From contig CAVUAK010000002.1 in assembly GCA_963739455.1 (NCBI GenBank), positions 352,001 to 416,000 on the forward strand: a stretch of DNA of 64,000 nt, written 5' to 3'. Positions 9,235-27,708 of the stretch are shown here, one piece after another. Position numbers and translations under genes: made by a program. Source of the DNA: an uncultured Gemmatimonadales bacterium. Its GTDB lineage: Bacteria > Gemmatimonadota > Gemmatimonadetes > Gemmatimonadales > GWC2-71-9. The notes beneath the pieces are model-generated. The model was not told where the DNA came from. It worked only from the letters and a program-made list of their open reading frames with translations, and ran no database searches. How positions within the stretch are numbered: the stretch's first letter is position 1; each line of letters begins with the position of its first letter.

Positions 9235-9248
9235 TGAAGTGCACCCTC

Positions 9249-9355
9249 TTGCGCGATGTCCCGGCAGGGGTACTCTATGGTCGGGAGACCCGATCCGGCG
9301 ATCCCGCATGACCGGCCCTCCCGACGCGTACCACGCCGCACCGGGGGCCCGTTCT
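9249..9355 (+). promoter_or_regulatory. Putative sigma70 promoter (TTGCGC-16-TACTCT) plus conserved structured leader, copy 1
   Basis: -35 at 9249-9254, -10 at 9271-9276; same architecture recurs at 11790-11890. Confidence 0.6.
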
Positions 9356-11659: not shown

Positions 11660-11710
11660 ACCAGGCGTGGCAGGGCAGTACTTGAGTACAGATTGAACGA
11701 GGTTGACGGA

Positions 11711-11754
11711 GAGGGCGTGAGGTGGCTTCGGCCACTTCACGCCCTCGTCGTTTT
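11711..11754 (+). terminator. Intrinsic terminator
   Basis: GAGGGCGTGAGGTGGC-TTCG-GCCACTTCACGCCCTC followed by GTCGTTTT. Confidence 0.75.
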
Positions 11755-11789
11755 CGAAGCGCAAGGTCGCATCGTTCGTCCTCCGCCTC

Positions 11790-11890
11790 TTGCGCGCTCC
11801 CCGCTCCCGGGTAGTCTAGGATCGGGGGCCCGATCTGCGATCCCGCACGACCGGCACTCCCGACGCGCATCATCGCACCGAGGGAGTCTC
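11790..11890 (+). promoter_or_regulatory. Putative sigma70 promoter (TTGCGC-16-TAGTCT) plus conserved structured leader, copy 2
   Basis: -35 at 11790-11795, -10 at 11812-11817; leader highly similar to 9277-9355; SD GGGAG at 11882. Confidence 0.6.
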
Positions 11891-14212
11891 ATGCCTGAAG
11901 TCCGGTCTTCAGTCGTCATCCGCTCACGCAGCTCGCTCGTTGTTGCAACCTTCGCGGTGGTGGGAGGCATCTACCTCTCCGCATGTGCTGGCGAACCACT
12001 GCCCGATACCGGCACCGTATCGGTGGCCCTCGCACCGGCGAGCGTCAACGTGCCACAGGACGGCTCCGGCAACAGTGCCCTGACGGTTCAGCGGGGCGGT
12101 GCGTTCACCGGGCCAGTGACGCTGACGCAAACCGGCGCCCCAGCCGGTGTCACCGTGGCATTCACGCCTTCTGTTGTTCCAGCTGGCGCAACCGCGAGCA
12201 CCGTGACCATCACAGTCGGCGCCACCGTCGCGGCCGGCACTTATCCGGTCAGCATCAGGGCCACGGGCGACAACGTCCCCGCGGCCCTCGCAAACCTTGC
12301 CGTCGTTGTCACTGGTGGTGCGGCCGGCTCGATCACCCTGACGGCTGCACCCACCACGCTCACGGTTCCGGTTGGCGCAGCCGCCGTGACCTCCGTGATC
12401 ACGATCGCGCGAACCGCGCCCTTCGCCGGGGCCGTCGCCCTGACGGTGACAGGTCAGCCGGCAGGCGTGACCGCAACCCTGACTCCCACGAGCGTCACGG
12501 GAACCACCTCGACGCTGAGTGTTCAGTCGGCAACCGGTGCCGTGAACGGCGCGTATCCGCTCGTGATCCACGGAGCAGGTACCGGCATTGCCCCGGCCTC
12601 GGTGACAGTCACCGTGACAGTCACTGGGGGAGCGACAAGTGGCGTCTGGTTCACGTTCACTCCATCCTCTATTCCGGTGACGGTTGGCGGCGGAAGCGCC
12701 ACGTCCGCAGTTCTCATCACGCGCACCAGCTTCCTCGGAGGCATAAACCTCACGATCAGCGGTGCCCCGACAGGCATGAGCGCGAGCGTCAACCCCAACA
12801 ACAACGTCGCCGGGACCGCCGCCACCGTGAGTGTGCAGGCGGGCGCCGCCGTCGCACCAGGCACGTACAACCTGACACTCACTGGAACGGGCGCCGGTAT
12901 ACCGGACGCTACCGGTATCCTGCCGGTCGTGGTGTCACCGGCCAGCGGCGGGGGGAGTGCCACGGTCACCTTCTGCACTGAGGATGCGCCGCTCTGGGTG
13001 GCGTCGCAGGATGGCAACGGTGCCTGGACCCGAGTCGATCCCACGACCGCGGGTGGCACCACGTACCAGTTCACGTTCGCCACGGGCAAGGGCGGGATTG
13101 CGACGGTGCAGTCCGATGCCTCCGGCACAGACCTTAGCGTCCTCTATGCCACACTGGCCGATTTCACCGCCTTCGCCAGTACCGTGAACAACAACGCTTG
13201 CGAATCAAACAAGGCGGTGAACGGATCGGTTTCCGGCGTCGGGGCAACCGAGGCCGCAATTGTCGACCTCGGCGGCAGCTCGGTACGCGTCGATCCCCCC
13301 GCCACTGGTTTCGCGCTTTCAAACGTACCTGGTGGAGTGCGGAACCTGGTGGCGACGCGGATCGACGGCAGCACGGATGCCGTCAACTGGATCATCATAC
13401 GCAGGGGCCTCAACCCCGCCGATCGCGATATACTTCCAACACTGACCTTCGGCACCGAGGGATCCCCGACCGTCTCCGCCAACGTCAGCGTGACCAATCT
13501 CGGCGCTGACGCCGCGACCGTGGGCTCGGTCTTTACCGGTGTGCGGGGCTCATCGTTCGTATTCCTCAGCACCATCGAGAACATTGTGGCAGCCTCGCCA
13601 GCGCAGCTGTACACCGCGATCCCGACGGCCCAGCTCAATGCCGGTGAATTGCAGGAAGTGGTGGCCCTGTCCTCAGCTGCGGGCAACCCGAATAGTGATC
13701 GTTCGGCGGGAGTGTACTTCACGAACGTTGTGGACCGGACCATTGCCCTCGGGCCGAACCTCAGCATTCCCACCGTGACGAAGACGGTGACGGGTGGCAT
13801 TGCTCGGCCGAACGTACAACTGCCAAGCCAGGCAGAGTACGATCGCTATCTCAGCGCTACCTACACGCAGGGCGCCAGCCAATCAGCGAATGTCTTCGCG
13901 ACCGCGTCGTACTACGGCGCCCTCCCCACGACCTGGGATGTGAGCCTGCCAGACCTCTCGACTGTGCCGGGATGGACCGCTTCGTGGGGGCTGCAGGACG
14001 GTACGCCGATCGACTGGGATGTCTCGGCACAGGGTGGTGCGATCACCTTCCTCGACCCGACCATCAGCGACGGAAGCCCCACACGGGGCGCGACGGTCCG
14101 CAGTTCCGCATCATTAGCGCTGCGGGGCGTTCCCGGAGGCACGGACCTGCTGATGCTGCGGCGCCGCCTGATGGAAGTTTTCACGGACAGGCACAGCGAC
14201 CCACTGCACTAG
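11891..14212 (+). CDS. Large Thr/Ala/Gly-rich surface lipoprotein with repeated Ig-like beta modules (paralog 2)
   Basis: Lipobox LSAC; colinear with paralog 1 (RGGAFTGPVTL, RTAPFAGAV, GTYNLTLTGTG, CTEDAPLWVASQDG, DWDVSAQGG). Confidence 0.75.
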   Translation: MPEVRSSVVIRSRSSLVVATFAVVGGIYLSACAGEPLPDTGTVSVALAPASVNVPQDGSGNSALTVQRGGAFTGPVTLTQTGAPAGVTVAFTPSVVPAGATASTVTITVGATVAAGTYPVSIRATGDNVPAALANLAVVVTGGAAGSITLTAAPTTLTVPVGAAAVTSVITIARTAPFAGAVALTVTGQPAGVTATLTPTSVTGTTSTLSVQSATGAVNGAYPLVIHGAGTGIAPASVTVTVTVTGGATSGVWFTFTPSSIPVTVGGGSATSAVLITRTSFLGGINLTISGAPTGMSASVNPNNNVAGTAATVSVQAGAAVAPGTYNLTLTGTGAGIPDATGILPVVVSPASGGGSATVTFCTEDAPLWVASQDGNGAWTRVDPTTAGGTTYQFTFATGKGGIATVQSDASGTDLSVLYATLADFTAFASTVNNNACESNKAVNGSVSGVGATEAAIVDLGGSSVRVDPPATGFALSNVPGGVRNLVATRIDGSTDAVNWIIIRRGLNPADRDILPTLTFGTEGSPTVSANVSVTNLGADAATVGSVFTGVRGSSFVFLSTIENIVAASPAQLYTAIPTAQLNAGELQEVVALSSAAGNPNSDRSAGVYFTNVVDRTIALGPNLSIPTVTKTVTGGIARPNVQLPSQAEYDRYLSATYTQGASQSANVFATASYYGALPTTWDVSLPDLSTVPGWTASWGLQDGTPIDWDVSAQGGAITFLDPTISDGSPTRGATVRSSASLALRGVPGGTDLLMLRRRLMEVFTDRHSDPLH

Positions 14213-14249: not shown

Positions 14250-15077
14250 TCAGGCTGGCGCCGCCTCAAACACGTAGCTCACATAGCCGAACTCTCGCTC
14301 GCCGTTGGCGGCCCAGCGCCGGACGTGCGCTGGCGCCACCACCCGTCGCGTCCCGTCGTCGAGCAGGGATGTCGCCTCATAACCGTGGCGCCAGAACACC
14401 TCGAACGTTGGTTCGAAATCAGGGTTGAGTCCTGCGGGATGATGCTCGGTGAGGCAGATCTCCAGCAACCACACCGGCCTCGGCTTCCGCTGCAGCACCT
14501 CGGTCGCACCTCGCAGGACCCCGAGCTCGGCGCCTTCAACATCGACCTTGATGAGCAGGGGCTGACCGCTGAAGCGATGGCCCATGACGGCATCAAGCGT
14601 CGTCAGGGGAATCGACCGCCCACTGGCCGCCGCTGCACCGGCCCATTCGGGCAGCAGGGACGCTCCGGTTCCACCACCATGCAGCGTGGCGATCCCGTAT
14701 CGATCCGCCAGTCCCGCTGGCACCACCTCGACATCGCTCCAGCCATTTGCCATCAAGTTGAAGAGGAGGCACTCCACATTGTCGCGCGATGCCTCGACGG
14801 CGATGACGCGCGCGCCTGCCTTCCGTGCCAGGCATGTGTAGAAACCGATATTGGCTCCGATATCGACGAAAACGGCAGCGCGTGCAAGCTGCGCCTCGAT
14901 GAACCGGGTCTCCGCTGGCTCGAATCCCGCGGAGCTCATCACCTTGTTGCCCGCCAGGCGGAAACCGTGAGGGGTGTCGCGAAGGGCTGCCGGGCCGCAA
15001 CGCCGCTGGGCGCGGACGGTGGACCGGGCCAGGGCGTAGCTGGAGAGCCAACTGGAGAGGAAGTTCGCGATGCCCAC
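14250..15077 (-). CDS. FkbM-family SAM-dependent methyltransferase
   Basis: FVDIGANIGFY, LIKVDVEGAELGVLRGA. Confidence 0.9.
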   Translation of the reverse strand: MGIANFLSSWLSSYALARSTVRAQRRCGPAALRDTPHGFRLAGNKVMSSAGFEPAETRFIEAQLARAAVFVDIGANIGFYTCLARKAGARVIAVEASRDNVECLLFNLMANGWSDVEVVPAGLADRYGIATLHGGGTGASLLPEWAGAAAASGRSIPLTTLDAVMGHRFSGQPLLIKVDVEGAELGVLRGATEVLQRKPRPVWLLEICLTEHHPAGLNPDFEPTFEVFWRHGYEATSLLDDGTRRVVAPAHVRRWAANGEREFGYVSYVFEAAPA

Positions 15078-15125
15078 GAGGCTGCCGGCCTCCGGTGCCT
15101 GCGATATGATTCAACTTGCCGCCAA

Positions 15126-15199
15126 TGGGCCCTGTTGGATTCGAACCAACGACCTACGGATTATGAGTCCGCTGCTCTAACCGACTGAGCTAAGGGCCC
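15126..15199 (-). tRNA. tRNA with CAT anticodon, most likely tRNA-Ile2 (lysidine type)
   Basis: Minus strand GGGCCCTTAGCTCAGTCGGTTAGAGCAGCGGACTCATAATCCGTAGGTCGTTGGTTCGAATCCAACAGGGCCCA; paired G1-C72 and no GGG/CCC anticodon stem, so not fMet; resembles Ile2 sequences. Confidence 0.92.
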
Positions 15200-15200
15200 G
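15161..15200. repeat. att direct repeat, left copy (5' half of the intact tRNA)
   Basis: TTATGAGTCCGCTGCTCTAACCGACTGAGCTAAGGGCCCG, identical to 26044-26083. Confidence 0.97.
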
Positions 15201-15211
15201 AACGTTCTGCC

Positions 15212-15240
15212 ACAATAACTTAGCGTTCACCCGGCTTCAA
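15212..15240 (-). promoter_or_regulatory. Element-borne sigma70-type promoter for the restored tRNA (TTGAAG-17-TATTGT)
   Basis: Minus strand ttgaag ccgggtgaacgctaagt tattgt ggcagaacgttc, then tRNA G1. Confidence 0.65.
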
Positions 15241-16495
15241 CGTCGGCCCCTTCCCGGTGGCTCCCGGTGGCATCGGGACGGAGGAACGCCCGCAGGGTGT
15301 CGTCCCCTTCCTCAGTCGCGTGCGTGTAGACCTCAAGCGTAATCTTCGTATTGCTGTGCCCGGCTGCGCGGCTCACCGCCGAGATCGGCATGCCCGCCGT
15401 CACCCAGTCGGAGATCACCCGGTGCCGCAGATCGTACATGCGGACTTCCTTCCGTACGCCCGTCGCCTTCTTCGCCCGCTCGAAACGCTTCACCAGCGCG
15501 TCGTACGTCATCAGCCTGCCGTCCTCCCCGGGGAACAGCAGCCCCGGCGTCCAGCCTGCGCGCTCCTCGGGCGTGGCCGTCAACTCCATGCGCTCGCGCC
15601 GTCCTGCCGCTCGCTGCAGCGCCTCGGCCACCGCCGCCGGGATCGGCAGCGTGCGTCGGCCTGCCCGCGTCTTGGGCGTCTTGAGCACCGCCGCCTGTCC
15701 GCGCACCCACTGCGCCGCGTGCGTCACCTGCAGCGTGTCCGCACTGAGCAGATTCTCCCGGCGCAGCGCCGCCGCCTCACCCGGGCGCATCGGCAGGTAG
15801 CACTGCAGCGTGATGATCGGGCCGATCACATCGTCCGTCTCCGCCCACGCCTTCAGCTTGGTCAACTCCTCCGTCGTCGGGATCGTGAGCGTGTGCTCGC
15901 GCCGCTCCACCTGCGGGAGCGTAACCTTCCCGCCCTTTCGCCCGCTGAGGAACGGGTGCAGCAGCGTGAGGTCCATGCGAATGAAGTACGTGAACGCCTG
16001 CCGGATCGTCGTGTGGAGCTTGAGCGCCTGTTTCCCCGTGCTCGCCCGTTCGACGCGGCTCAAGAGATCCTGCGCGTCCGCCGGGCGAATCTCGCGGACC
16101 TCGCGGCGCGCCAGTCGGTCGCAGTCGCCGTAGGTGAACGCGGGGAGCGGCGTCGTCCCGTCGCGGAGCGCGGTGGCGATGTCCTTCGGGATCAGTTTCC
16201 ACTGCGCGAGCCGCGTGACGTCGTCGTAGAACGTGCGGGCGCTCGCGGTGCTCTGGTGCATCTGCAGCCACTGCACCAGCGACGGCCCGAGCCGCCCCTT
16301 CTTCACGCGGGTCAGTGTGCCGTGTTCCTGCGCGATGGAGCCTTGCACCCGATCGCGTTCCGCCTGTGCCTTCGTGTCACGCACCGGCCCGAGCTTGATG
16401 ATGCTCCCGGCGATCTGGATGCGCGCCTGCCAGCGCATGCCGTCCTTGGACGGACGCGGCTCGACCCAGCCTTCCCCCCGCTTCGCTTTTGCCAT
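15227..16495 (-). CDS. Tyrosine recombinase/integrase
   Basis: MRPGEAAAL (R), KTPKT (K), YDLRH, AGHSNTKITLEVYTH (H,Y); N-terminal arm-binding-like segment; adjacent to att. Confidence 0.95.
   Translation of the reverse strand: MAKAKRGEGWVEPRPSKDGMRWQARIQIAGSIIKLGPVRDTKAQAERDRVQGSIAQEHGTLTRVKKGRLGPSLVQWLQMHQSTASARTFYDDVTRLAQWKLIPKDIATALRDGTTPLPAFTYGDCDRLARREVREIRPADAQDLLSRVERASTGKQALKLHTTIRQAFTYFIRMDLTLLHPFLSGRKGGKVTLPQVERREHTLTIPTTEELTKLKAWAETDDVIGPIITLQCYLPMRPGEAAALRRENLLSADTLQVTHAAQWVRGQAAVLKTPKTRAGRRTLPIPAAVAEALQRAAGRRERMELTATPEERAGWTPGLLFPGEDGRLMTYDALVKRFERAKKATGVRKEVRMYDLRHRVISDWVTAGMPISAVSRAAGHSNTKITLEVYTHATEEGDDTLRAFLRPDATGSHREGADVEAG
15252..15271. repeat. Tandem 10-bp repeat TCCCGGTGGC x2 (candidate integrase arm-type sites)
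   Basis: Read directly; related pair at 25901-25920. Confidence 0.6.
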
Positions 16496-16531
16496 CGTGA
16501 TTCTCCGTGTGGTGGTTGGTCCTCGCCGGGG

Positions 16532-16708
16532 TCAGAACCCGGCGTCCTGCATGTCCTGCCGTACGTCCTCCGGTAACTCGTCTCGCGTGCGCGCCTGCTG
16601 CAGCGCCCGGCGGATCGCTTGCTGCTCCGCGATCGGTCGCCAGCTGAACGGCTCGCTGTTCACGTACCGGGCGGCTGCCCGGCTGAACGCGGCGTGGTCC
16701 TCCTCCAT
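16532..16708 (-). CDS. Small hypothetical protein (58 aa) upstream of integrase
   Basis: Strong SD GAGGAGG before ATG; MEEDHAAFSRAAARYVNSEPFSW... Confidence 0.6.
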   Translation of the reverse strand: MEEDHAAFSRAAARYVNSEPFSWRPIAEQQAIRRALQQARTRDELPEDVRQDMQDAGF

Positions 16709-16881
16709 CTCGCCTCCTCGTGTGGGGGCGCTTGAAGGAATCGACCGAGGGGACTGCACAGCAAAGGGCCGAGCCTCCGTAGCCCTCCGCCCGCCGCCCG
16801 GCTCCCCTATGGCAGCGCGGTCCTTCGGTGGCCCCCGTCTCCGCTGCTCTCCCGAGGGACCACTGCGCACCGCTCGGCCTC

Positions 16882-16910
16882 TTGATCGAACGCAGCGGTG
16901 CCGGTATGAT
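16882..16910 (+). promoter_or_regulatory. sigma70 promoter TTGATC-17-TATGAT
   Basis: Near-consensus hexamers with a 17-bp spacer in an intergenic region. Confidence 0.7.
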
Positions 16911-16915
16911 TGCGT

Positions 16916-16997
16916 TGAGTCTCGCCTCCAAGCGGCTCATGTGAAGAAAAGGTTTTGCCAGCCCTCGGCGCGTCCACGCCGAGGGTTTGGCGTTTCT
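16916..16997 (+). ncRNA. Candidate ~80-nt sRNA (5' hairpin with CCUCC loop region plus terminator hairpin)
   Basis: Follows the promoter; TGAGTC..GGCTCA stem; GCCAGCCCTCGGCG-cgtcca-CGCCGAGGGTTTGGC-GTTTCT terminator-like hairpin. Confidence 0.5.
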
Positions 16998-17219
16998 GGC
17001 TCTGGCTTTTCTCACCGCCGTGCCCGCTTCACGGCTGGACGCGAACACCCGTGTCAAGGTCCGCCAATTGGCGGACCTCACTTCCGCAGCGGCTGGTACT
17101 TCCCGCTGCTCGCCGCCTCGGCACTCCGCATAGGGCGATCGTCCTACCCGTTTGCAAATCCTGGGACGGCGGTTATACGTCCGGGCCTCGCTGCGATTCC
17201 TTCTCGACACGAGGTGCCT

Positions 17220-18014
17220 GTGATCCGGCTGTCCCTGCCGCGCACCAAAGCGGCAACGTTCTGCATCAACTTCCTGCCCGATGATGAGAGCCTGCCGTGG
17301 CCCGCTGGCACCGGCTTCTTCGTGTCGCCCGACGGCGTCTTCATCACAGCGGCCCACGTCGTCACCGAGGACGGCACCCCGACCGGCAAGGTGCGCGACA
17401 ACCTCGGGACCGCTCATTTCAATCGCGAGGCCGCTCACGAGCCCGGCGGTGCCTCCGTGCATTCGCCCTCGCTGATCGAACTGATGCCGTCGCATGACAT
17501 CGCGATCCTGCGCGTCCCGTTTGAGAAACACACGCCTGCGTTTCCCGGTCCCGGCTTTCAGCACCTCCATGTGTCGCGCCGTCAGCTGGAGGACGCCGAA
17601 CCCGTCTACGCGTACGGCTATCCGCTCAGCGAAACCGTCCTCCTGCACCAAGACGAGCACCAGCAGATCGCCGCCCAGAAACTCTCGCCGCGCACGACGT
17701 CGATGATCGTGGCCTCGCAGTGGTACTACGTGCCGAACACCGTGCAGAGCACCGAGCCGGAGCGATACGCGCTCGACAAGGCACTGAACTACGGTAACAG
17801 TGGCGGACCGATCCTCGCCCAGAGCACGGGTCACGTGCACGGATGGTGCTCGCGGTTCCAGCCTGTCGAGATTCCGCAAACGCACCTCGCTGGTCCCGCC
17901 GGAGAGCCGATCCGCATCTTTATGCCGAGCCTCTACGGGATCGTCGGCAGCTTTCACAGCCCCGAAGTGATCGAGGCGCTTGAGCGCCTGAACGTCCCGC
18001 TCGTGGACGCCTAG
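17220..18014 (+). CDS. Stand-alone trypsin-like serine protease (cargo)
   Basis: GTGFFV, ITAAHVV (His), HDIAIL (Asp), GNSGGP (Ser); GTG start at 17220 (or 17214) after GAGG; no signal peptide or PDZ domain. Confidence 0.85.
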   Translation: MIRLSLPRTKAATFCINFLPDDESLPWPAGTGFFVSPDGVFITAAHVVTEDGTPTGKVRDNLGTAHFNREAAHEPGGASVHSPSLIELMPSHDIAILRVPFEKHTPAFPGPGFQHLHVSRRQLEDAEPVYAYGYPLSETVLLHQDEHQQIAAQKLSPRTTSMIVASQWYYVPNTVQSTEPERYALDKALNYGNSGGPILAQSTGHVHGWCSRFQPVEIPQTHLAGPAGEPIRIFMPSLYGIVGSFHSPEVIEALERLNVPLVDA

Positions 18015-18256
18015 CCCTCCCGTCGCGCTCGTCTCCGCATGCGCTGCCGGTCGATCTTCCGCCGGTGCTGCGCCTGCGGCGTTCGGCATCGCGTGCACAT
18101 GATGCGCGGTCTACCCCGCACACGCCGTCGCGCTGGTACCGTCACCAAGCGCGGGCAGCACAGGCACTCGACCCAGCGCCTCCCCGTGCGGGAGCACGTG
18201 TCGTGGCAGCGCACGCCCGCACACGCCACCCGCAGCAGGATGGACTCGCGCCTCAC
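18011..18256 (-). CDS. Small Cys-rich, putative zinc-binding protein
   Basis: C-x4-C, CLCC and CTRC clusters; GTGA overlap with the upstream ORF. Confidence 0.45.
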   Translation of the reverse strand: MRRESILLRVACAGVRCHDTCSRTGRRWVECLCCPRLVTVPARRRVRGRPRIMCTRCRTPQAQHRRKIDRQRMRRRARREG

Positions 18257-18705
18257 TGATCGAGCAGCACCGGTCGTGAGTCGCCATCTGCCTGCGGCAA
18301 GCGGCGTCCGCGCAAGCTCGTCACGCCCGGCAGGTAGTCCGCGCTCGCGCTGGTCGGGTATGTCTCGGCCACCACGTCAGCGACGAGCCTCGCGGCCAGC
18401 GGATTGACCACCACCTCGCGCTGCTCCCGGTAGCTCTTGCTCTCGCCCTCGCGCTGGCCGCTCTCGGCGCTCGCGTACAGCGGCGCGAGGCCCCGGGCGA
18501 GGCTGAACCCCACCTGCAGCACCAGCGCCCGGTGGAGACTCGGCGTGTCCTCGGCCTCCTCGTACACCTCCTGCGAGATCGGCAACAGGTCCGCCGCGAG
18601 CGCCACCTCCTCGCCGAATCGTGTCGGGCTCTCCATCGCCATCTGCTTCGCCTGCGGCGTGAGGAGCGGGTGCGCCGTCAGGTCCGGCAACGGGTTGAGC
18701 TTCAC
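18253..18705 (-). CDS. Hypothetical protein, weak resemblance to phage head-tail adaptor proteins
   Basis: 150 aa; helical ALVLQV segment followed by S-A-E-S-G..ESKSY hairpin-like motif; translationally coupled. Confidence 0.5.
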   Translation of the reverse strand: MKLNPLPDLTAHPLLTPQAKQMAMESPTRFGEEVALAADLLPISQEVYEEAEDTPSLHRALVLQVGFSLARGLAPLYASAESGQREGESKSYREQREVVVNPLAARLVADVVAETYPTSASADYLPGVTSLRGRRLPQADGDSRPVLLDQ

Positions 18706-18806
18706 GCGATGATCCGCGCCAGCGCCGCCGTGACCGGGTCGCGGACCGGGTCACCGGTCGTGCTCTTGAGCAACTGCGCAATCGTCGGAAACGGGTACCC
18801 TCGCAT
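18702..18806 (-). CDS. 34-aa peptide (below ORF-track cutoff)
   Basis: SD AAGGAGG; MRGYPFPTIAQLLKSTTGDPVRDPVTAALARIIA; stop overlaps the next GTG. Confidence 0.5.
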   Translation of the reverse strand: MRGYPFPTIAQLLKSTTGDPVRDPVTAALARIIA

Positions 18807-18899
18807 GTCGTGCCTCCTTGTCTCGTGAATGACCCCTGCTCGACCCCTGTCATGTGCTCGCTCACCCGGGCAGCATCGCGGTTGCTCTGACCGCCTGCC

Positions 18900-19214
18900 T
18901 TACATCGCCCGCTGCCGGGCCAGCACGTCCGCTGCTGCCGTGGCTCGGTCCTGCGCCTGCTGCAGCTTGGCGCGATTCTCGAGCGCGATCTTGCCCCGGA
19001 AGCACATCCAGTATTCCGCCTCGGTGAACGTCCATCCGTTCGCGGCGTCCTCCGCCTCGCGAGCCGCGACGATCTCCTGCATGCTCTTGCCCGCGAGCCG
19101 CATCGCTTTGCCGCGCTCGGCGCGGATCGCGTTCCGCCGCTCCTCCTCCTCGTGGCGCGCTATCTCCTCGTCCTCCTCCGCGAGCAGTCGCTCGCGCTCG
19201 ACGTACTCGCTCAC
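18900..19214 (-). CDS. Hypothetical charged helical protein
   Basis: GTGA overlap at 19211-19214; MSEYVERERLLAEEDEE... Confidence 0.55.
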   Translation of the reverse strand: MSEYVERERLLAEEDEEIARHEEEERRNAIRAERGKAMRLAGKSMQEIVAAREAEDAANGWTFTEAEYWMCFRGKIALENRAKLQQAQDRATAAADVLARQRAM

Positions 19215-19492
19215 TGGCCGTGGTAGAGCGAGTCGAGCGGCTTGTGCATCGCCTGATACGCGGCGAGGTCCGCCTCCTGCTTCACCTTCACGTCCGCCGC
19301 CTCGGCGGCGAGAAACTGATCCATCGACTCCCACTGCAGGTTCGCCTTCGCGTACGCAGCTTCGAGGACTTGCGTCTGCTGCTCCATCGTCAGGCCCTCG
19401 AAGGCGTTCTCCCGGCGCAGCTTGTCGCGCAGCCGGTCGCGCTGCTGGCCCATGTCGCGTGCGATCTTTTCCTCTTGCGTCAGTCCTGACAT
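19211..19492 (-). CDS. Hypothetical helical protein
   Basis: SD GAGGAG; MSGLTQEEKIARDMGQQRDRL... Confidence 0.6.
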   Translation of the reverse strand: MSGLTQEEKIARDMGQQRDRLRDKLRRENAFEGLTMEQQTQVLEAAYAKANLQWESMDQFLAAEAADVKVKQEADLAAYQAMHKPLDSLYHGQ

Positions 19493-19536
19493 GCTCGTCT
19501 CCTCAGTGGTGCTGATAACTGCGCTGATTTGCGCAC

Positions 19537-19716
19537 TTACTTCCGCAGCGGGGCGAGCGCCCCGTATCTGGCGCGGTACCACTCGCCCCGGCACTGCGCT
19601 GTCGCGAACTCCACGCGGACGCGGCGCTGCAGCGTGCACGTCATGCGGGGCACGCGCTCGCGCATCTCGCGCTCGTCGTGCGCCTCGGGCACCGGCCACG
19701 CCAGTGTGATGCTCAC
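19537..19716 (-). CDS. Small hypothetical protein
   Basis: GTGA overlap with the upstream ORF stop; MSITLAWPVPE... Confidence 0.35.
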   Translation of the reverse strand: MSITLAWPVPEAHDEREMRERVPRMTCTLQRRVRVEFATAQCRGEWYRARYGALAPLRK

Positions 19717-20363
19717 TCGCTGGCGCTCGGCTGTGCCATGAGCAGGGGCGAGGGCAGGCGCAGTCCGGTCGCCATCGCGATCAGCGGCGCGATCAGCGTT
19801 GTGTAGGCTGGGGCGATGCGATGCCGCCCGAGCGTCCGCAGCGCCACCTTCCCGTCGCCCGTCACGTCCTTGAGCGCCTGCTCGTGCGCGAGCAACGCGA
19901 GACACCACTCCCGCGTCGGCAGGAACCCTGCGTCGATCCGATCCGCGCCGATCGTGAGGTGCGCGTCGTAGGCCTCCACCTTCGGGTCGAGCAGTGCCTT
20001 CTCGGCGGCACGCTGCTCCGCCTGCACCCGGGCACGCTCCGCCTGCTCCTCGCGTTCACGGGCGATGCGGGCGAGCGTGGCGTTCGCCTCCTGCTCCTCA
20101 CGGTCGAGCGCGTCGAGGCGCGGGGGTTCGTCCGGCCCCTTGAACGCGGGGTGGAAGTACCCGCGCCCGTGCTCGTCCTTCGCGCCGAGCGGGAACGGCG
20201 ACGCCACGGGCTCCGCGTCCGCCGTCTCTGCCGCACTCTCGTCCAGCAACTCGACACGCTCCAGCCCGGTCCCGTCCGGCAGCGGCTGCGGCTGACTGCG
20301 GCGACGCCCGGCCATCACCGGATGCGGAACCTTGTCCACCTCGATCTTCGTTCCAGTGCTCAT
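19713..20363 (-). CDS. Hypothetical protein with central coiled coil
   Basis: ATGA overlap at 20360-20363; MSTGTKIEVDKVPHP...REEQAERARVQAEQRAAEK. Confidence 0.6.
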   Translation of the reverse strand: MSTGTKIEVDKVPHPVMAGRRRSQPQPLPDGTGLERVELLDESAAETADAEPVASPFPLGAKDEHGRGYFHPAFKGPDEPPRLDALDREEQEANATLARIAREREEQAERARVQAEQRAAEKALLDPKVEAYDAHLTIGADRIDAGFLPTREWCLALLAHEQALKDVTGDGKVALRTLGRHRIAPAYTTLIAPLIAMATGLRLPSPLLMAQPSASE

Positions 20364-20662
20364 GACTGTCCTCGGTGCCCGCGTGGGCGTTGCTGTGGTC
20401 GTGCCTTCGGCGTGATGGCAACGGCGTGGTGCCGCCTGCGCTGCCCGTGATTCCCCTTGCCGTCCGGCGCGGCTTCGGCGTCGAGGATGCCGTGCTGCAG
20501 CGCCCACGCGCAGATGAGGTCGATGCGCGCTGGGACCTCGGCCAGCGTGAGCCCGAGCACCGTCGCGATGCGCTCGGGCGACTTCTTCTCGCGCAGGGCA
20601 CGCAGGAGCCACATCGCCTCCCGCAGTTCCCGGCCCGGCGTGCCCACGCTTGGCGGAATCAC
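20360..20662 (-). CDS. Hypothetical protein, possible HTH
   Basis: SPERIATVLGLTLAEV resembles an HTH; overlapping start and stop codons on both sides. Confidence 0.5.
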   Translation of the reverse strand: MIPPSVGTPGRELREAMWLLRALREKKSPERIATVLGLTLAEVPARIDLICAWALQHGILDAEAAPDGKGNHGQRRRHHAVAITPKARPQQRPRGHRGQS

Positions 20663-21087
20663 GCGGCGCGAGCCTCACGAGGGAGCAGGTCGCCTCTCGC
20701 CGGGATGCCCTGCGCCCGCAGGTACGCGTCCATCGTCGGGGCCACCACGAGCGCCGCTCGCCCACTCATCCGGCAGAGCCCGCTGCTGTCGAGGTAGTGC
20801 CCCCTCGGGACGTTGTCGTACGGCGCGATGACGTCGAGGAGCGGCCAGTAGTGCCGGGCGATCCATCGGGCCTCCTGCCACGAGATCGGCATCCAGCGCC
20901 GCCCCTCCGGCGTCACGAGGATCGTCTCCGGTAGCTCGCCGCGACTGAACCGCAGCGGAATGCTGAGCACGGCAGTGAAGTAGTTCGCTGGGAGCTTGCC
21001 CCCACGCGGGAACGGGATAGAATCGCGGCACGTCATACGGCACCCCTGATCGGTGTTGTATCGCGAGCCGGAGGGGCGGCGCGTCAA
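20659..21087 (-). CDS. Hypothetical protein
   Basis: SD GGGAGG before TTG; protein-like composition; coupled to the next ORF. Confidence 0.5.
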   Translation of the reverse strand: MTRRPSGSRYNTDQGCRMTCRDSIPFPRGGKLPANYFTAVLSIPLRFSRGELPETILVTPEGRRWMPISWQEARWIARHYWPLLDVIAPYDNVPRGHYLDSSGLCRMSGRAALVVAPTMDAYLRAQGIPARGDLLPREARAA

Positions 21088-21109
21088 CGCTGCCTCCCGG
21101 CGTGTTGTT

Positions 21110-21469
21110 TTACAGCATGTCCGGCGACCACACGTCGGACGCCAACTCCGCCTCCCGCGCCTGTGTCAGCCGCAGGACCATGTCGTTCAACTCGGCAACG
21201 ACCTCGGCCAGCACCTCGCTCGCCTCGCCCATCGGCGCCGGGTCGTCCCGCCCTTCGATCGCCGCGAGATAGCCCTCGAACTCCTGCCGGTGCATGTCGA
21301 GGCTGCGCTTCACCCGCTCCATCTGCTCGCGGTCGTTCACCAGCTTGTTGATGCACGAGCGCAGGACGCGAGGCGCACCGCGCCGGAGCCGGGGCTGTCC
21401 GGTCAGGTTCCCGCCCTGTCGCGCCACCGCTGCCAACTGCGCAGTGATCGGGTCGTGCGTGGTGCTCAC
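21110..21469 (-). CDS. Hypothetical coiled-coil protein
   Basis: SD AGGAGG; MSTTHDPITAQLAAVARQ... Confidence 0.6.
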   Translation of the reverse strand: MSTTHDPITAQLAAVARQGGNLTGQPRLRRGAPRVLRSCINKLVNDREQMERVKRSLDMHRQEFEGYLAAIEGRDDPAPMGEASEVLAEVVAELNDMVLRLTQAREAELASDVWSPDML

Positions 21470-21740
21470 GGTGATGCCTCCTGTTGCGTCCTCAGCGCCT
21501 CGCTGGCGCGTCGTCGCGATCTACTCCGGTATCCTCCGGCCCTCGCGTCGTTCCCTCGGCAGCGGGGCGATGGCGTCGGCGTGTGCATCCGCCGCCTCGT
21601 GCGCCCGCGTAGTCAAGTGGATCAACGCACAAGGCACGTCGCACACTCTACGTGTGGCGCCACCCGCTGTGCAACGCACCGAAAGTTGACAGTCCGGTCG
21701 CTGCGTTTCCCTCTCCGGGCGCGTTGGCGCGTTAGCGCAC

Positions 21741-21920
21741 TTTTAGGGGAACTTTCTCTATAGAAATCTCTTATAGGGGTTACCTCAAAACTGTGCCGAC
21801 GTGTCAACCTGTCCGGCGTTTTCCGACGCTTCCCCCCACGTAGAACGCGTTAACGCGATTTCCCGGGAATCTCCCCGCTACCGCACAATCCCTGGAGGTT
21901 TCGGAAAAGCGTGTCAACGT
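21741..21920. other. Candidate replication origin of the element
   Basis: AT-rich tract 21741-21790 with imperfect palindrome TTTCTCTATAGAAA; GTGTCAAC repeated at 21801 and 21912; immediately downstream of the helicase gene. Confidence 0.45.
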
Positions 21921-21923
21921 GTC

Positions 21924-23414
21924 TCACCACCCATCTGTCGGGTCGCGGGGCAGTTGCACGCGCACGCCGAGCCAGCCGCGCACGCCGTTCAGCTTGTGGG
22001 GTCGGAGGCCGAAATTCGGCAGGTGCCGCCCGAGCTTCGTCGAGGTCATCGGCTCCTCGCCGTCGCCCATCGCGAACGCCTGATAGGCCGTCAGCAAGTC
22101 TTTCGACGTCGTGAACGCCGCCGGGTCCATCTCGCACTGCTCGTCGAGGAACCCGCCGATCCGGTCGTTGTTCGTCCGGTGCTGCTTCGTCGCGGCGTCC
22201 ACGATCGCACACGGCGGCAGTCGTCCCGGCGCGGTCGGCTGTTTCGGCCCGTCGTCACCGCCCTCGCCCCGGCGCCATGCCAGCGCGCCCCGGACGATCC
22301 ACGCGAGGATGCCCTCGGCCTCCGCCTGCAGCTTCTCCTCCAGCTGGAGATCGCGTTCCTCCTCCGGCACCGTGACGCTGAACGGCACCAGCCGCAGCCG
22401 CCGCCAGATGCCGTCGTCCGTCCCTCGCACCTTCGGCACGCTGTTCGTCGCCAGCATCGGCAGGTGCCTCGGCACGAAGTCGAAGAACTCGTGATAGAGC
22501 CGCCGGGCGCTGACCATGCTGCCGCCCGTCTGCACCTTGATCTTCGCCTCGGCCAACTCCACTTCCTCCGGCGTCTCCTCACACGAGACGAGGCGGCGAC
22601 CCACCGTCTTGGCGAGGTCGTTCGGCACGTCGCTGCCCTTGCCGACGAACAGCGTTAGCGGCCCCGCGATCGCGTACTCCCCGAACGCATGCGTGATCGC
22701 TCGGAGCAACTTCGTCTTGCCGTTCTGTCCCTTGCCGAAGAAGATCGCCATGATTTCCTCGCTGCCGCCGCCCGCCGCTGCGTACCCCGCGACACACTGC
22801 AGCCAGTGCCGCACCTCCTGATCGGGTTGCGCGTACCGCAGCACCCGCAGGAACAGGGCGCACTCTGCGTCCGGGTCGTACGCGTGCCCCGTCGTGAACG
22901 TGCTGTAGTCCTCGCGGTTATGCGGGCGCAATTCCCCCGTGCGCAGGTCCACCGTCCCGTTGCTGCAGGTGAGCAGGTGGTGCTGCCGGTTGAACAGGTC
23001 GGTCCTCGCCATCAGCAGCGGGTGCGACTTCGCCTGCTGCAGCACGGCGTTGAGCCGCTGCGCGTTGTGGAACTGCGTACTCGCCTTGAGCGCCTTCTGC
23101 CGATCGTCCGCGTTCTCGATCGCGTTTGCCTCCGCCGTCCGCCGCCGTGCTGTTTCCCACGCCCGCCGCGTCGCCGCCTCCTGCGCATCCGGCACCCACC
23201 GCGTCCCGTCCCACGCCATCCACCCCTCGGCCCGGGTATGGCGGAGTGTCGCGTGATGCTGCTCCGCGAAGCGCCTCGCGTACTCCAGATCGGTGAACGG
23301 GCGCTCCCCGTCGATGTCAGCGGCAGACGGCATGCGGCTGATGACTTCCGCTGCCGTGGGCTCTGGGGCGGCGTCAAGCGCGTGCCCGACCTCGGGCTCA
23401 TTGGGCGGCGTCAT
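21924..23414 (-). CDS. P4-family/D5-like primase-helicase (D5_N + SF3 helicase)
   Basis: WMAWDGTRW, LLTCSNGTVDLRTGELRPH, Walker A GKGQNGKT, TGGSMVSARRLY, ATNSVPKVRGTDDGIWRRLRLVPF. Confidence 0.92.
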   Translation of the reverse strand: MTPPNEPEVGHALDAAPEPTAAEVISRMPSAADIDGERPFTDLEYARRFAEQHHATLRHTRAEGWMAWDGTRWVPDAQEAATRRAWETARRRTAEANAIENADDRQKALKASTQFHNAQRLNAVLQQAKSHPLLMARTDLFNRQHHLLTCSNGTVDLRTGELRPHNREDYSTFTTGHAYDPDAECALFLRVLRYAQPDQEVRHWLQCVAGYAAAGGGSEEIMAIFFGKGQNGKTKLLRAITHAFGEYAIAGPLTLFVGKGSDVPNDLAKTVGRRLVSCEETPEEVELAEAKIKVQTGGSMVSARRLYHEFFDFVPRHLPMLATNSVPKVRGTDDGIWRRLRLVPFSVTVPEEERDLQLEEKLQAEAEGILAWIVRGALAWRRGEGGDDGPKQPTAPGRLPPCAIVDAATKQHRTNNDRIGGFLDEQCEMDPAAFTTSKDLLTAYQAFAMGDGEEPMTSTKLGRHLPNFGLRPHKLNGVRGWLGVRVQLPRDPTDGW

Positions 23415-24427
23415 CGTGTGCGCTCCCGAAGCAGTTGCTCGTTGCGTTCGTCCATGAGCCGCTGGTATGCCTGCTCGTATCGCTCTCGCCACGCCGCCCA
23501 CGACACGCCGAACAGCCGCTGCGTCGCCAGATCGTACGCCCGGCGGCGATCACCAGCGGCGTCCAGCGCGACGAGGAGGTCGAAGGCGTTCTTCGCATGC
23601 GTCCGCCCATCGTCACCCGGCTGGGAGAGCGGATCATCGGCGTGATGGACGTAGACCTTGCCCGTGTTCTCGAAGAACTTCACGCCCGGTGCTGACCCAC
23701 GTGCCGCGTGCGGACTGCGCCAGCGATCGCGCCGCCGCTGGTAGCCGTGCTGCGCCAACAACTCCGCCACCGTGATGCTCGCGTTGAACGTCGCGATCAA
23801 CACCTTCACCGGATGCGTGTCGCTCATCGGCGGGCGTTCGCGGCGGCCCGTGTCGATCGGAGCCGGGTCAAACGGCCACTGCTCGTACAACTGCCGCAGC
23901 GCGTCCGGCCACTGCGCCAATCCCTCGACGCGGGGATCGACGCGCCACGTGTAGCGCCCGCCGGTCGCACGCGGGCTCGGCGGCAGGATGTCGTAGCCAC
24001 TCAGCCGCACTTCGAACAGCGTCCGCTCGGGCTCGGGCTCGACCAACTTCTTCACTGTGCGCACCGTCGCGCTGTCGGCCGCGAACATCACCTTTGCCCG
24101 CTCGTGGCCCCGCTCGTCGGTGCGGCCCTCCATCCTCGCGCCCATGTCGAGCCACCCGTCCACGTCCTCGCCCGCCGCGTGCAGCACGGCGCGGGTGCGC
24201 CTGAGATTGTCCACGTCGAGCATCATGGTCTGGCTCGGCGCGTTCACCCCGGCGAAGCCGCAGCCGGGAATCCGCTCGCGCACCTGTTCCAGATGCTCGC
24301 GAGTGCGGAGCACCGCGTCTGGTCGCGCCCACGGGTAGAAGCGCGGCGGCACTTTCGTCCCGGGCACAATGGGGATCAGTCCAATGCCGAGCAGGAAGTA
24401 TTCGGCGTACTCGTCGAGGTCACCCAT
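23411..24427 (-). CDS. Bifunctional primase-polymerase (Prim-Pol, AEP) domain protein
   Basis: GIGLIPIVPGTKVP, MMLDVD, ILPPS....GGRYTW; SD GGAGG; ATGA-coupled to the helicase. Confidence 0.75.
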   Translation of the reverse strand: MGDLDEYAEYFLLGIGLIPIVPGTKVPPRFYPWARPDAVLRTREHLEQVRERIPGCGFAGVNAPSQTMMLDVDNLRRTRAVLHAAGEDVDGWLDMGARMEGRTDERGHERAKVMFAADSATVRTVKKLVEPEPERTLFEVRLSGYDILPPSPRATGGRYTWRVDPRVEGLAQWPDALRQLYEQWPFDPAPIDTGRRERPPMSDTHPVKVLIATFNASITVAELLAQHGYQRRRDRWRSPHAARGSAPGVKFFENTGKVYVHHADDPLSQPGDDGRTHAKNAFDLLVALDAAGDRRRAYDLATQRLFGVSWAAWRERYEQAYQRLMDERNEQLLRERTR

Positions 24428-24665
24428 CGAATCCTCCGCAGGCATCCGCAGTGCGTGCGGCTCCCTCGGCAGTTGCCGCGTTCGCTGGCGGACGCATCCG
24501 CTGCCCGTGCTGCTCCTCGCGTCGGGCCTCGTACTCCGCGTCACGCCGCAGCCGTCGCAGCAGGCTCTCCAACCGAACCGATTCCCTGCGCTTCATCCCC
24601 GCCTCCCCCGAACACGTTGAGCCCGCACGCCCGATCGTCGGGCGCGCAGGCAGGATTGCTGGTGA

Positions 24666-25169
24666 CTACTTCGGAGCCCGCCCTGCGAGCGTGTCATCCA
24701 CGCAGAGCGCCCGGCCATCGAGCACCGACGCGGCCTGCACCTCCACCCACGCACCCGGCGCGAACGCCGCCATCACCTGCACGCTGCCGTCGCGCTGGAC
24801 CGCACCACAGAGCAGCGAGCCGACCGCGTCCACCGTGACGGTGTCCGCGTACAGCCACATCCAGCAGTCCTCCTCGCCGGTCGGCTCGCGCACCGCCCAG
24901 AAGCGTGACCCGTACCGCGCCGGGGGGAGGGGGAGCCCACGCAGCTTCCGCTGCCGGTCGCGGCGCATCTCCGCCCGCCACGCCTGCGCTTCCTTCGCGG
25001 TGGCGAAACTCCGCTTCTCGCGATGCATCTGCCCGCCCGGCAGCTTCAGGTTCACGGCGGCTTGGTAGGGGAGGTCCGCGTCAGGGCGATGAATCACGCC
25101 CTTGACGTTCCGGGCCTCCGGTCGGCGTGACGCCTTGACCTGCGTCTCCTGCATTCGCATTCTTCCCAT
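24666..25169 (-). CDS. Hypothetical protein with AP2-like/arm-DNA-binding-like N-terminal region
   Basis: YQAAVNL..PGGQMHREKRSFATAKEAQAWRAE. Confidence 0.5.
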   Translation of the reverse strand: MGRMRMQETQVKASRRPEARNVKGVIHRPDADLPYQAAVNLKLPGGQMHREKRSFATAKEAQAWRAEMRRDRQRKLRGLPLPPARYGSRFWAVREPTGEEDCWMWLYADTVTVDAVGSLLCGAVQRDGSVQVMAAFAPGAWVEVQAASVLDGRALCVDDTLAGRAPK

Positions 25170-25299
25170 CGTCTTTCACTCCCTCGCTGGTGGTGGAACG
25201 ACTCGTCGGCTTGCTCCGTGTGTGGGGCCGACACGCGACACGTGTCAGAAGCGTGTCGCACCCCCGAGCGCCGCCTCCCAAGGGCGGCGTTCGGCTTTC

Positions 25300-25554
25300 T
25301 CAGGCGGCACTGGGTTCCTCACGGCGACGCGGGCCGGGCTGCGGTGCCCTCGCGGCAGCCTCCGCCTTCTGCCGGGCCAGATAGGCCTCGGCGCTCGCCC
25401 GCGTGATCTTCAGCCGCTTTTGCATCACGAACGCTTCCAGCTGGCCCTCCGCGATGAGCCGCTTCAGCGACCGCTTGCTGAAGTCCCATTCCACGCACAG
25501 CGTGTCCGCGTTGATGAGGCCCGTCACTCCCGTCTCCCGCCGTTCTCGTGGCAC
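25300..25554 (-). CDS. Excisionase-like HTH protein
   Basis: SKRSLKRLIAEGQLEAF..QKRLKITRASAEAYL typical of Xis/HTH_17; SD AGGAGG. Confidence 0.75.
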   Translation of the reverse strand: MPRERRETGVTGLINADTLCVEWDFSKRSLKRLIAEGQLEAFVMQKRLKITRASAEAYLARQKAEAAARAPQPGPRRREEPSAA

Positions 25555-25594
25555 CCTGCCCTCCTGCGTTGCTTCGGTTGGTAGAACGCAAAGA

Positions 25595-25641
25595 GCCCCG
25601 GGTCGCGACGACAGGATCTCTCCTGTCGTGCAACCCGGGGC
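25595..25641 (-). terminator. Long hairpin in the leader of the xis-replication operon (terminator/attenuator-like)
   Basis: GCCCCGGGT..ACGACAGGA-tctc-TCCTGTCGT..ACCCGGGGC; followed on the minus strand by TCTTT. Confidence 0.5.
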
Positions 25642-25900
25642 GATGTGAAATGCGTAGCTCCGGTCCTACTGGATTACGGCGCCGTCTCCTGCGCCGACTC
25701 GGCGTCCATCTCTCGCCGCCCGCCTACCGGCGGGGCTGATCCATGTCGGCTCGGGCGGGTGGTTTCACACCTCCGCATTCGAGCCCTCCTGCGTTGTCGC
25801 GAGTCAATCTGCGCGTTGGTGATCCAAAAGTCAAACGTCCGCTGCGCTCTGCTTCGCTCCGATTTCGTCGCGTATAACTGCCGCGAAAAGGATTCACAAA

Positions 25901-25920
25901 TTCCGGTGGCATCCGGTGGT
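25901..25920. repeat. Tandem 10-bp repeat TTCCGGTGGC ATCCGGTGGT (candidate arm-type sites)
   Basis: Same CCGGTGG core and 10-bp period as 15252-15271. Confidence 0.6.
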
Positions 25921-26043
25921 GCCTGTGCCTTTCTCCGCCGTTTTCTGCCCTCCGGGACGGGGAGCGACGCGCGACGTTTTCACCAAGCAAATGCGCGTGC
26001 AACATGGGGTTATCCCTGTCGCACGCGCATGTGAAAAGTCTGC

Positions 26044-26083
26044 TTATGAGTCCGCTGCTCTAACCGACTGAGCTAAGGGCCCG
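26044..26083. repeat. att direct repeat, right copy (displaced 5' tRNA fragment)
   Basis: Identical to 15161-15200; stops at the anticodon loop CTCATAA. Confidence 0.97.
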
Positions 26084-26094
26084 CGTCCCTTCAA

Positions 26095-26442
26095 CTATCG
26101 CTCGTACTCCTGCTCCAGCGGCTCGACGACCACCGCCGTGCCATAGCACAACACTTCCGTGACGCCCTTCCCGATCTCGGTGGCATCGTAGCGCACGCCA
26201 ACAACAGCGTTCGCCCCTCGTCGATCCGCGTGTGCCATCATGATCTCATACGCCTCATCCCGCGCCTTCTCGCACAGGTCGGTGTAGAGCGAGATGTTGC
26301 CCCCGACAATCGTCTGCAGGCTCGCCCCGATCTGGCCGAATACCGAGCGCGACCGAACCACGATGCCCCGCACGATACCCAGGCTCTGGATGACGCGGTG
26401 GTTCTCGAGCGTGAAGGTCGTCGTCGTCATGTCCGTGTGCAT
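26095..26442 (-). CDS. ybjQ: YbjQ/UPF0145 family protein
   Basis: [12 protein letters not shown]...[11 protein letters not shown]...EVLCYGTAV. Confidence 0.9.
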
Positions 26443-27524
26443 CAGCTGCTCCCCTGGGCCCGCACTCGCTCATACAGCGCGATGTAGCGCTCCGCCATGA
26501 TAGCCCGCGTGAACTGTTCCTTCACCCGCTGGCGGCCGGCAGCTCCCATCCGTTCCCGCAGTTGCGGATCCCGTCCGAGCGTCTCGAGCGCGCGCGACAT
26601 CGCCTCCACATCGCGGATCGGCACCTCGAGCCCCGTGACGCCAGGGAGGCTCAGCTCACGCACGCCGGTCGGCAACGCCGTGGTGATGACCGCCCGCCCT
26701 GCCGCCATCGCCTCGAGCACTGAGATCCCGAACATCTCGTCGGAGGTTACCGACGGAAGCACCAGGAAGTCAGCATCGGCCATGCGGCGCGGCAGGTCCT
26801 CGTCGGGGTACTCGCCGAACCAGCGCACGCGATCGGCAATGGCGAGTGCCCGGGCCATTGTCTTGAGGCGCGGGGCATCCGGCCCATTGCCGATGACGTC
26901 GAGTCGCACGTCCGACGTCTGCTCCAGCGCCCGCAGCAGGATGTCGAGGCCCTTCCAGCTCGCCAGCCGGCCGATGAAGATGGCCCGGGGCGGCGCTCCT
27001 GGCGGTGGCGGCGGCACGACGTCCCAGCGCGACTCGTCGATGCCGAACGGGATCACCTCGGTCTTCGCCTCGTAGCCGCGCAGGTCAGCCGACAATGCCA
27101 GGTGCGCCCGGCTCGGAACAACGATCGCCTTGGCCTTGCGGAGCACGAGGCGAACCGCCGGGCGGTAGATGCCATGACGGGCGTCGCCGTGGTGCGTTAC
27201 CACCACCGGGGCGCTCCCCGCGCGGAGAAGCACGGCGACATCGGCCAGCACATGGGGATGGTGCACGTGGATGATGTCCGCCCGCTTCCACGCCGCCGCC
27301 AGGTAGCCCGGCGCGATCTCCTGCGACCCGAGGGCGCCCAGCGAATAGGTGCGCGTGACGGTGCTGCGCGAGCGACCGGACTGGCCGGTGCCGAACACGG
27401 ACTCGACCGCGACCACCTGCACGTCGTGTCCGAGCGCCGCGGCACCTTCCGCGAGGCCCTGCACGACCCGCTCCATGCCGCCGGAACGTGGCCAGTAATA
27501 CTTGGCGAGGTGCAGGATCCGCAT
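26442..27524 (-). CDS. Glycosyltransferase family 4
   Basis: [36 protein letters not shown]. Confidence 0.92.
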
Positions 27525-27708
27525 GCATACCCGTATACGAAGGAAGCAACGCCGTGTCCCATGAATGGGCCGTGCCGCGGCGGCGGGAAGTTGGCCACGT
27601 TGCCGGGCCCGGTCAACCGCGCACTTGGTACCGTGCGACGCGCCAGTAGATTACCCGGACCGTGCAGGCACGGCACCTCACCATTCCCGGCTCCAGCAAC
27701 AGGAATTC

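Follow-up and report, generated by a model that had tools for sequence, protein, structure and literature searches.

How does a bacterium keep making a tRNA that it needs when an integrated element has come to lie between the tRNA gene and the sequence natively upstream of it? The question is raised by a 64,000-nucleotide stretch of DNA (the window) from an uncultured Gemmatimonadales bacterium (GenBank assembly GCA_963739455.1, contig CAVUAK010000002.1, positions 352,001 to 416,000; genome G000), in which an element of 10,883 bp adjoins the 5' side of the gene for a tRNA of the Ile2 type, the reader of AUA codons. Elements that target tRNA genes usually carry the 3' half of the gene, whereas Mx9 is reported to target the 5' part of a tRNA-Gly. 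A first-pass annotation of the window had proposed that the present element duplicates the 5' half of its target instead. The explanation that best accounts for the whole of the analysis, to which we give a probability of roughly 0.78, is that of an integrative element with a reversed attachment site (attP), which would recombine in the anticodon loop, carry a promoter for the rebuilt tRNA within attP and shield its own genes behind a hairpin.

Two identical 40-nt sequences in direct orientation, 15161-15200 and 26044-26083, bound the element at a start-to-start distance of 10,883 bp; of the 20 largest repeat families listed for 12-30 kb, this is the sole one with 100% identity. On the minus strand each copy starts a single nucleotide before G1 and runs through tRNA nucleotides 1-39, the last seven of which are the anticodon loop. 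The first copy lies at and within an intact tRNA gene with a CAT anticodon (15126-15199, minus strand; ARAGORN; Rfam RF00005, 77.9 bits), which is rebuilt such that nucleotides 1-39 are the element side and the 3' half is host, while the second copy, matched by tRNA BLAST, is the displaced native 5' half and begins 12 nt past the stop codon of ybjQ. The minus-strand order is accordingly glycosyltransferase, ybjQ, orphan 5' half, element, integrase, intact tRNA and fkbM, with the 3' end of the co-oriented integrase gene 27 nt upstream of the intact tRNA. Both the repeat and the polarity proposed in the first-pass annotation, with the 5' half of the intact tRNA on the element side and an orphan 5' fragment beside ybjQ, are recovered exactly. 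The point at which the identity ends, taken with the model of an anticodon-loop bacterial attachment site (attB) in PMC8371274, makes the loop at 15161-15167 the probable 7-bp strand-exchange overlap. In the assembly (3.6 Mb, 83.7% complete), a genome-wide BLAST of all ARAGORN calls gives a single long and exact off-gene match to a tRNA, namely the orphan half; the remaining seven off-gene matches span 26-50 nt at 78-93% identity.

The target is a tRNA that the cell can probably not do without. Three CAT tRNAs were called in the assembly and only the element's target is of the Ile2 type, in line with the single copy expected earlier; the other two we take, from their identity elements, to be initiator and elongator Met. 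The pairs C4:G69 and C5:G68 of the target are presumably the TilS identity elements of the Ile2 type, and TilS is encoded in the genome above its model cut-off. The AUA codon is found in 600 of 1,661 crudely called long open reading frames (ORFs) of the genome, so an AUA decoder is needed, and the target tRNA would be essential.

What, then, is the native arrangement of this site? The best loci of 11 congeners were compared, and in four of them (G003, G004, G006 and G008) ybjQ ends 14-23 nt before the same tRNA, which upholds ybjQ as the native upstream neighbour. The contiguity of ybjQ, tRNA and fkbM that had been predicted for element-free relatives is found in G008. When the flanks of the element are rejoined in silico they give one unbroken alignment to G008 of 4,117 nt at 80.6% identity and also align through the tRNA to G004 and G006, and the element sequence has no match in any of these three genomes. 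The downstream neighbour, a host FkbM methyltransferase gene (14250-15077, minus strand; PF05050), has an 84% identical copy beside the G008 tRNA. In G010 a glycosyltransferase gene directly precedes the tRNA, and the remaining congeners are arranged otherwise. At the G010 locus (L008) the glycosyltransferase frame seems to enter the 5' end of the tRNA, with its stop codon within the tRNA gene.

The native gene appears to have had no promoter of its own. A -35/-10 matrix trained on 66 other tRNA upstream regions of this genome and its relatives scores 2.5 bits at the orphan native copy and 0.9-4.5 bits (leave-one-out) in the four ybjQ-adjacent congeners, which is background level. Upstream of the host glycosyltransferase gene, a promoter-like site at 27616-27588 reaches 11.4 bits, and the same -35/-10 pattern is present in G008 and G004. 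For this reason the native tRNA seems to be the last gene of a glycosyltransferase-ybjQ transcript, that is, of a predicted host operon at 26095-27616 (minus strand; Pfam, synteny and the promoter-like site) comprising a GT4 glycosyltransferase (27524-26442, minus strand; Pfam) and ybjQ (26442-26095, minus strand; Pfam). One member of the cluster to which this glycosyltransferase belongs carries the label Gemmatimonadota, which makes this the probable phylum of the host. The earlier claim that the element separates the tRNA from its native upstream region thus takes a more specific form: the upstream transcript is cut off.

From where would the rebuilt tRNA then be transcribed? The trained matrix predicts a replacement promoter on the element at 15212-15240 (minus strand, 11.4 bits), with a -35 of TTGAAG at 15240-15235, a 17-nt spacer and a -10 of TATTGT at 15217-15212, 12 nt before G1. 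Among 5,000 random genome windows 0.12% attain this score, as do 0.33% of 3,000 shuffles, and the score lies near the upper quartile of the native tRNA upstream regions (leave-one-out median 8.6 bits, 75th percentile 11.7). The -35/-10 spacing and the 12-nt distance match the native tRNA promoters of the group. The -35 lies within integrase codons 419-421 (V-E-A), which are invariant in three aligned sequences while neighbouring residues vary, a weak piece of evidence, and stands 14 bp from the arm-type repeats described below. In five of the seven loci that show both an orphan half and a rebuilt tRNA, a site of at least 9.9 bits precedes the rebuilt gene, against a background of 0.28% of windows. 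The element therefore probably supplies a predicted host-type promoter, so that the tRNA would not be left promoterless, and the expression problem implied by the first-pass annotation is unsupported, given a promoter-like site at host tRNA-promoter spacing.

Several observations weigh against this reading. A generic promoter scan did not call the site (8 of 12 matches), and its -10 deviates from the trained consensus at the strong position 5. Moreover, the -10 patch overlaps a YAA-N4-TTG sequence (15222-15213), which we take to be an IHF-like core, and similar AT-rich or IHF-like patches recur before other copies of the attachment site elsewhere, several orphan halves among them. Two of the seven paired loci, both from other phyla, score low (6.1 and -7.7 bits). 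As for the element as a whole, its excisionase candidate scores below the Pfam cut-off, and no DNA context of close integrase homologues was found in phylum genomes, viral contigs or metagenome contigs. Alternatively, the rebuilt tRNA could come from read-through of the integrase transcript or of some other transcript of the element, as in the pTN3-like archaeal integrases, and the AT-rich patch would then be only an IHF-type site at which attP is bent. The integrase gene is indeed co-oriented and its stop codon lies 27 nt before G1 with no terminator-like site between. However, upstream of the integrase gene the minus strand has no site that reaches 9 bits, the -35/-10 spacing and the 12-nt distance are those of the group's native tRNA promoters, and a promoter-like site also stands before the rebuilt tRNA in cassettes of this polarity that lack an integrase. 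On this balance read-through is the less probable source of the tRNA by a wide distance, and a promoter within attP is the explanation carried forward here.

The ends of the element have the layout expected of a tyrosine integrase substrate. The heptamer CCGGTGG occurs five times on one strand and not at all on the other within 15101-26200, and four of the five copies form two tandem pairs with a 10-bp period (15254/15264 and 25903/25913), one pair per arm and on the same strand. Given in the minus-strand sense, these are a pair of CCACCGG repeats within the 3' end of the integrase gene (15254-15274) and a second pair at 25903-25919; an 11-mer is common to the integrase-side arm (15254-15274) and the far arm. 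The pairs are likely to be arm-type sites for the integrase (Int). At the opposite edge, a long hairpin (25973-26040, minus strand; -44.2 kcal/mol, z -5.3) starts 4 nt past the orphan half, and none of 200 shuffles was equally stable. The generic scan did not call an intrinsic terminator at this hairpin; the transcript of the host operon may end or be processed there, at the edge of the element and before the predicted promoter at 25834. As a feature of the family the hairpin was rejected: in a survey of orphan flanks from which 3 short and 9 near-duplicate loci were dropped, z was -3 or lower in just 4 of 33 distinct flanks, with a median of -0.5.

Taken together, the model that we favor runs as follows. 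The tyrosine integrase would recombine in the anticodon loop of tRNA-Ile2, over 7 bp, with attP in the reverse of its usual orientation, for which reason attP must carry the tRNA's 5' half, and Int would bind the CCACCGG pairs. Integration would split the tRNA off the end of the glycosyltransferase-ybjQ transcript, and a promoter within attP, with its -35 in the last integrase codons, would drive expression of the rebuilt tRNA, preceded by a short leader. The operon running from the excisionase gene (xis) to the primase gene would be shielded from host read-through by the hairpin behind the orphan half. Precise excision would yield a 10,883-bp circle and restore the native operon.

The integrase (15227-16495, minus strand; 422 aa) matches PF00589 (E 8e-15; 55.5 bits, cut-off 27.1) and phrog_1 (E 2e-42) and falls far below cut-off with XerC, XerD and integron-integrase models. 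The catalytic residues R237, K275, R357, H380 and Y390 are present and invariant in three aligned sequences, Tyr replaces the first His of HxxR, and the length equals that of the homologue P0002. Relatives of 84-85% identity occur in metagenomes, after which identity falls to ~30%, and no homologue was found at E 1e-20 in 400 other genomes of the phylum. In a tree of 53 integrases, made by a quick search that left 33 of 50 inner branches open, the protein stands on its own long branch and is neither grouped with nor excluded from 10 integrases near other 5' orphans. On these comparisons it is an isolated lineage without a characterised close relative.

Most of the remaining genes are read on the same strand as the integrase gene. 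The top minus-strand matrix match (25806-25834, 13.2 bits; TTGACT-17-CAGATT) is the predicted promoter of the xis-primase operon, whose xis candidate encodes an excisionase-like helix-turn-helix (HTH) protein (25300-25554, minus strand; HTH_17 18.5 bits against a cut-off of 27; phrog_66 E 8e-4) that is the probable recombination directionality factor. Directly after it stands an ORF (24666-25169, minus strand) with a possible stand-alone domain like the arm-binding domain of integrases, a lead given by PF14657 at 19.5 bits (cut-off 22.3) and an Atlas score of 0.85 to PF26003; it has no BLASTP match to the element's own integrase and is a candidate recombination regulator. The replication module consists of a bifunctional primase-polymerase (Prim-Pol; 23411-24544, minus strand; PF09250 E 9e-10), for which no homologue besides itself was listed, and a P4-family primase / D5-like helicase (21924-23501, minus strand; PF08706 E 2e-23; TIGR01613 222.7 bits, cut-off 108.7). 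Some eight small, partly overlapping ORFs without assigned function follow (18253-21469, minus strand), with no match in Pfam, PHROG or NCBIfam; the G+C content at third codon positions is 0.83-0.91 for six of them when read in the right frame. The 150-aa product of one (18253-18705, minus strand) has no Atlas match and contains a short motif that we take to recall phage head-tail connector proteins, without database support. The sole opposite-strand cargo gene encodes a trypsin-like peptidase (17220-18014, plus strand; PF13365 E 1e-14) with a promoter-like site at 16882-16910, and protease-domain matches were all that PADLOC returned for defence systems in the element. Pfam, PHROG and NCBIfam scans of the element ORFs gave no match to capsid, portal or terminase; the 16 ORFs scanned gave none to relaxase or type IV secretion genes, so that the element does not qualify as an integrative and conjugative or an integrative and mobilizable element; and Rfam returned no structured RNA besides the tRNA. 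Judged by its predicted genes, this is an integrative element with its own replication module and without recognisable transfer or capsid genes.

Could the element instead be a stranded relic of a single integration, inert today and kept only for the tRNA promoter in its integrase end? The lack of recognised transfer or packaging genes, the absence of the integrase from the other phylum genomes and a G+C content equal to that of the host (0.683) all fit such a relic, and integrase-less 5'-half cassettes of 1.6-5.6 kb do exist at tRNA-Ile2. Against this stand an exact 40-bp repeat, two intact arm pairs, open integrase, primase and helicase frames, and the occurrence of 84-85% identical integrases in other metagenomes. 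A relic is therefore an unlikely description, and the element is probably still intact. That the arrangement is an assembly artefact or a chance partial duplication of the tRNA can be set aside almost entirely: it comes from a single assembly, but the element is single-copy inside a 497-kb contig, its flanks join into the congener arrangement, arm repeats stand at both ends and other genomes, too, have orphans that end at this base.

How common is this polarity at tRNA-Ile2? A pattern consisting of this tRNA's 5' half followed by a non-tRNA base was found in 3 of 401 genomes of the phylum, namely the present one, G389 and G403. In G389 the orphan bounds a 5.6-kb integrase-less cassette whose end repeats a host-like promoter, and the G403 locus runs off its contig. 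The same pattern gave 44 matches in metagenomes, 42 of them orphans ending at the loop, which the pattern selects for and which is therefore no frequency. A looser pattern returned 4 orphans in 43 viral matches, three with a co-oriented upstream integrase as in this element, and, among 120 genome matches listed, 13 that were not intact: five bacterial orphans from other phyla (four with an integrase no more than 5 kb away), four cuts at contig ends, three intron-like cases and one doubtful one. A 3'-end pattern occurred in at least two copies in 13 of 166 matching phylum genomes (a count that includes G086, unpublished), and all four duplicates that were checked are ordinary 3' fragments starting at the same anticodon loop. 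The two patterns are not symmetric, so that any ratio between them is rough. Relatives thus use the same anticodon loop in both polarities, of which the usual one is commoner; these counts (3 of 401 against 13 of 166) lend no support to the idea that reverse targeting predominates at tRNA-Ile2 in this phylum.

Integrase-less cassettes of 1.6-5.6 kb between a 5' orphan and a rebuilt tRNA-Ile2 were observed at G389:C3:390563-396242, L225, L229 and L252, and have tandem arm-like repeats of their own. In the G389 and L252 cassettes the sequence before the rebuilt tRNA includes a near copy of the host promoter. In L225 the leader in the ~25 nt before the rebuilt tRNA closely resembles 15200-15222 in a cassette that is otherwise unrelated. 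G389, G403 and several metagenome loci resemble one another in the element-side flank.

The polarity has precedents. According to the Islander survey (PMC4383910), a 5' tRNA gene fragment was recorded in 159 of 3,919 islands (~4%), with island lengths of 2-200 kb and a peak at 13.6 kb; PMC6563490, which cites Zhao & Williams 2002 (J Bacteriol 184:859), describes 5'-distal recombination as considerably less frequent, and PMC8371274 describes the 5'-half arrangement as seldom met in bacteria. The rarity implied by the first-pass annotation is in this respect not supported. The present element is a real member of the 5'-fragment class: an intact tRNA gene with an upstream, same-orientation 5' fragment encloses a PF00589 integrase that is neither Xer nor integron-like, the site is anticodon-centred, the length is within the class range and near its peak, and the uninterrupted site is present in the relatives G008, G004 and G006. 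It differs in its isolated integrase and in a target that seems natively to be the last gene of a protein-coding operon. With the class catalogued and a promoter predicted within attP, the arrangement is less surprising than had been implied.

Three other known systems invite comparison. The pTN3-like archaeal integrases (Cossu et al. 2017, in PMC8371274) also use the 5' half of a tRNA as attB and leave a rebuilt tRNA without its native promoter and reliant on element DNA, but they are suicidal integrases split by their own attachment site, and the rebuilt tRNA is expressed from the integrase promoter; here the integrase gene is whole, tail-on to the attachment block, and a separate promoter is predicted. 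In the tRNA-dependent lysogeny of mycobacteriophages (PMC10865867) the element likewise has to preserve the function of an essential single-copy tRNA and brings a promoter for it (here a predicted one), but the core is ~10 bp, and instead of rebuilding the host tRNA the phage complements it with a whole tRNA; here the 40-bp identity block rebuilds the host tRNA, and no further complete tRNA is encoded on the element. The phage-inducible chromosomal islands (PICIs) of Gram-negative hosts, some of which lie in tRNA-Ile2 (PMC10111431), resemble the element as 10-20 kb, mostly unidirectional satellites with an integrase, a small HTH regulator or excisionase (weak here) and a primase-helicase. Among its ORFs, about eight of which belong to no family, none gave a match to AlpA, capsid, terminase-small or other late genes, and it shows no packaging signal. 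The element differs from PICIs in having its integrase at the downstream operon end and in encoding a Prim-Pol. A literature search found no paper that combines Gemmatimonadota, integrase, tRNA and attachment site.

Beyond fkbM, two paralogous ~820-aa proteins (9239-11659 and 11693-14212, plus strand) with repeated immunoglobulin-like beta-rich units and signal-like N-termini are encoded between tRNA-Val(CAC) at 9042 and tRNA-Ile2; neither has a Pfam match. In several congeners their homologues are neighbours of this tRNA whether or not fkbM is there, and the interval is thus variable. Elsewhere in the genome, a tight array of seven tRNAs (Asp, His, Ile, Lys, Gly, Val, Arg; G000:C1:1362006-1364015), most of which duplicate isoacceptors found elsewhere, is possibly carried by a prophage or island, and a selenocysteine tRNA was called at G000:C1:2506324-2506421.

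A bolder hypothesis, which we regard as quite improbable, is that the sole AUA-reading tRNA has come under a promoter embedded in a recombination site, which would make the attachment site both a translation-level control point and a self-protecting device. If this were true, assembly of the excision complex could throttle the supply of tRNA-Ile2, deletion of the integrase end would be lethal, and the integrase-less cassettes made up of a promoter and a 5' half would be satellites or end products of such an element. The general picture of tRNA-targeted integration is unchanged by the present findings, and the additions made here are minor, namely an integrase of an isolated lineage in a Gemmatimonadota host, mapped arm-type repeats and a candidate insulating hairpin. 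With its empty site, core, both arms, predicted promoter and candidate hairpin, the element gives a clean and complete map of the minority polarity in a little-studied phylum. It is a candidate integration vector for Gemmatimonadota and offers a simple test case for how reversed elements keep an essential tRNA expressed.

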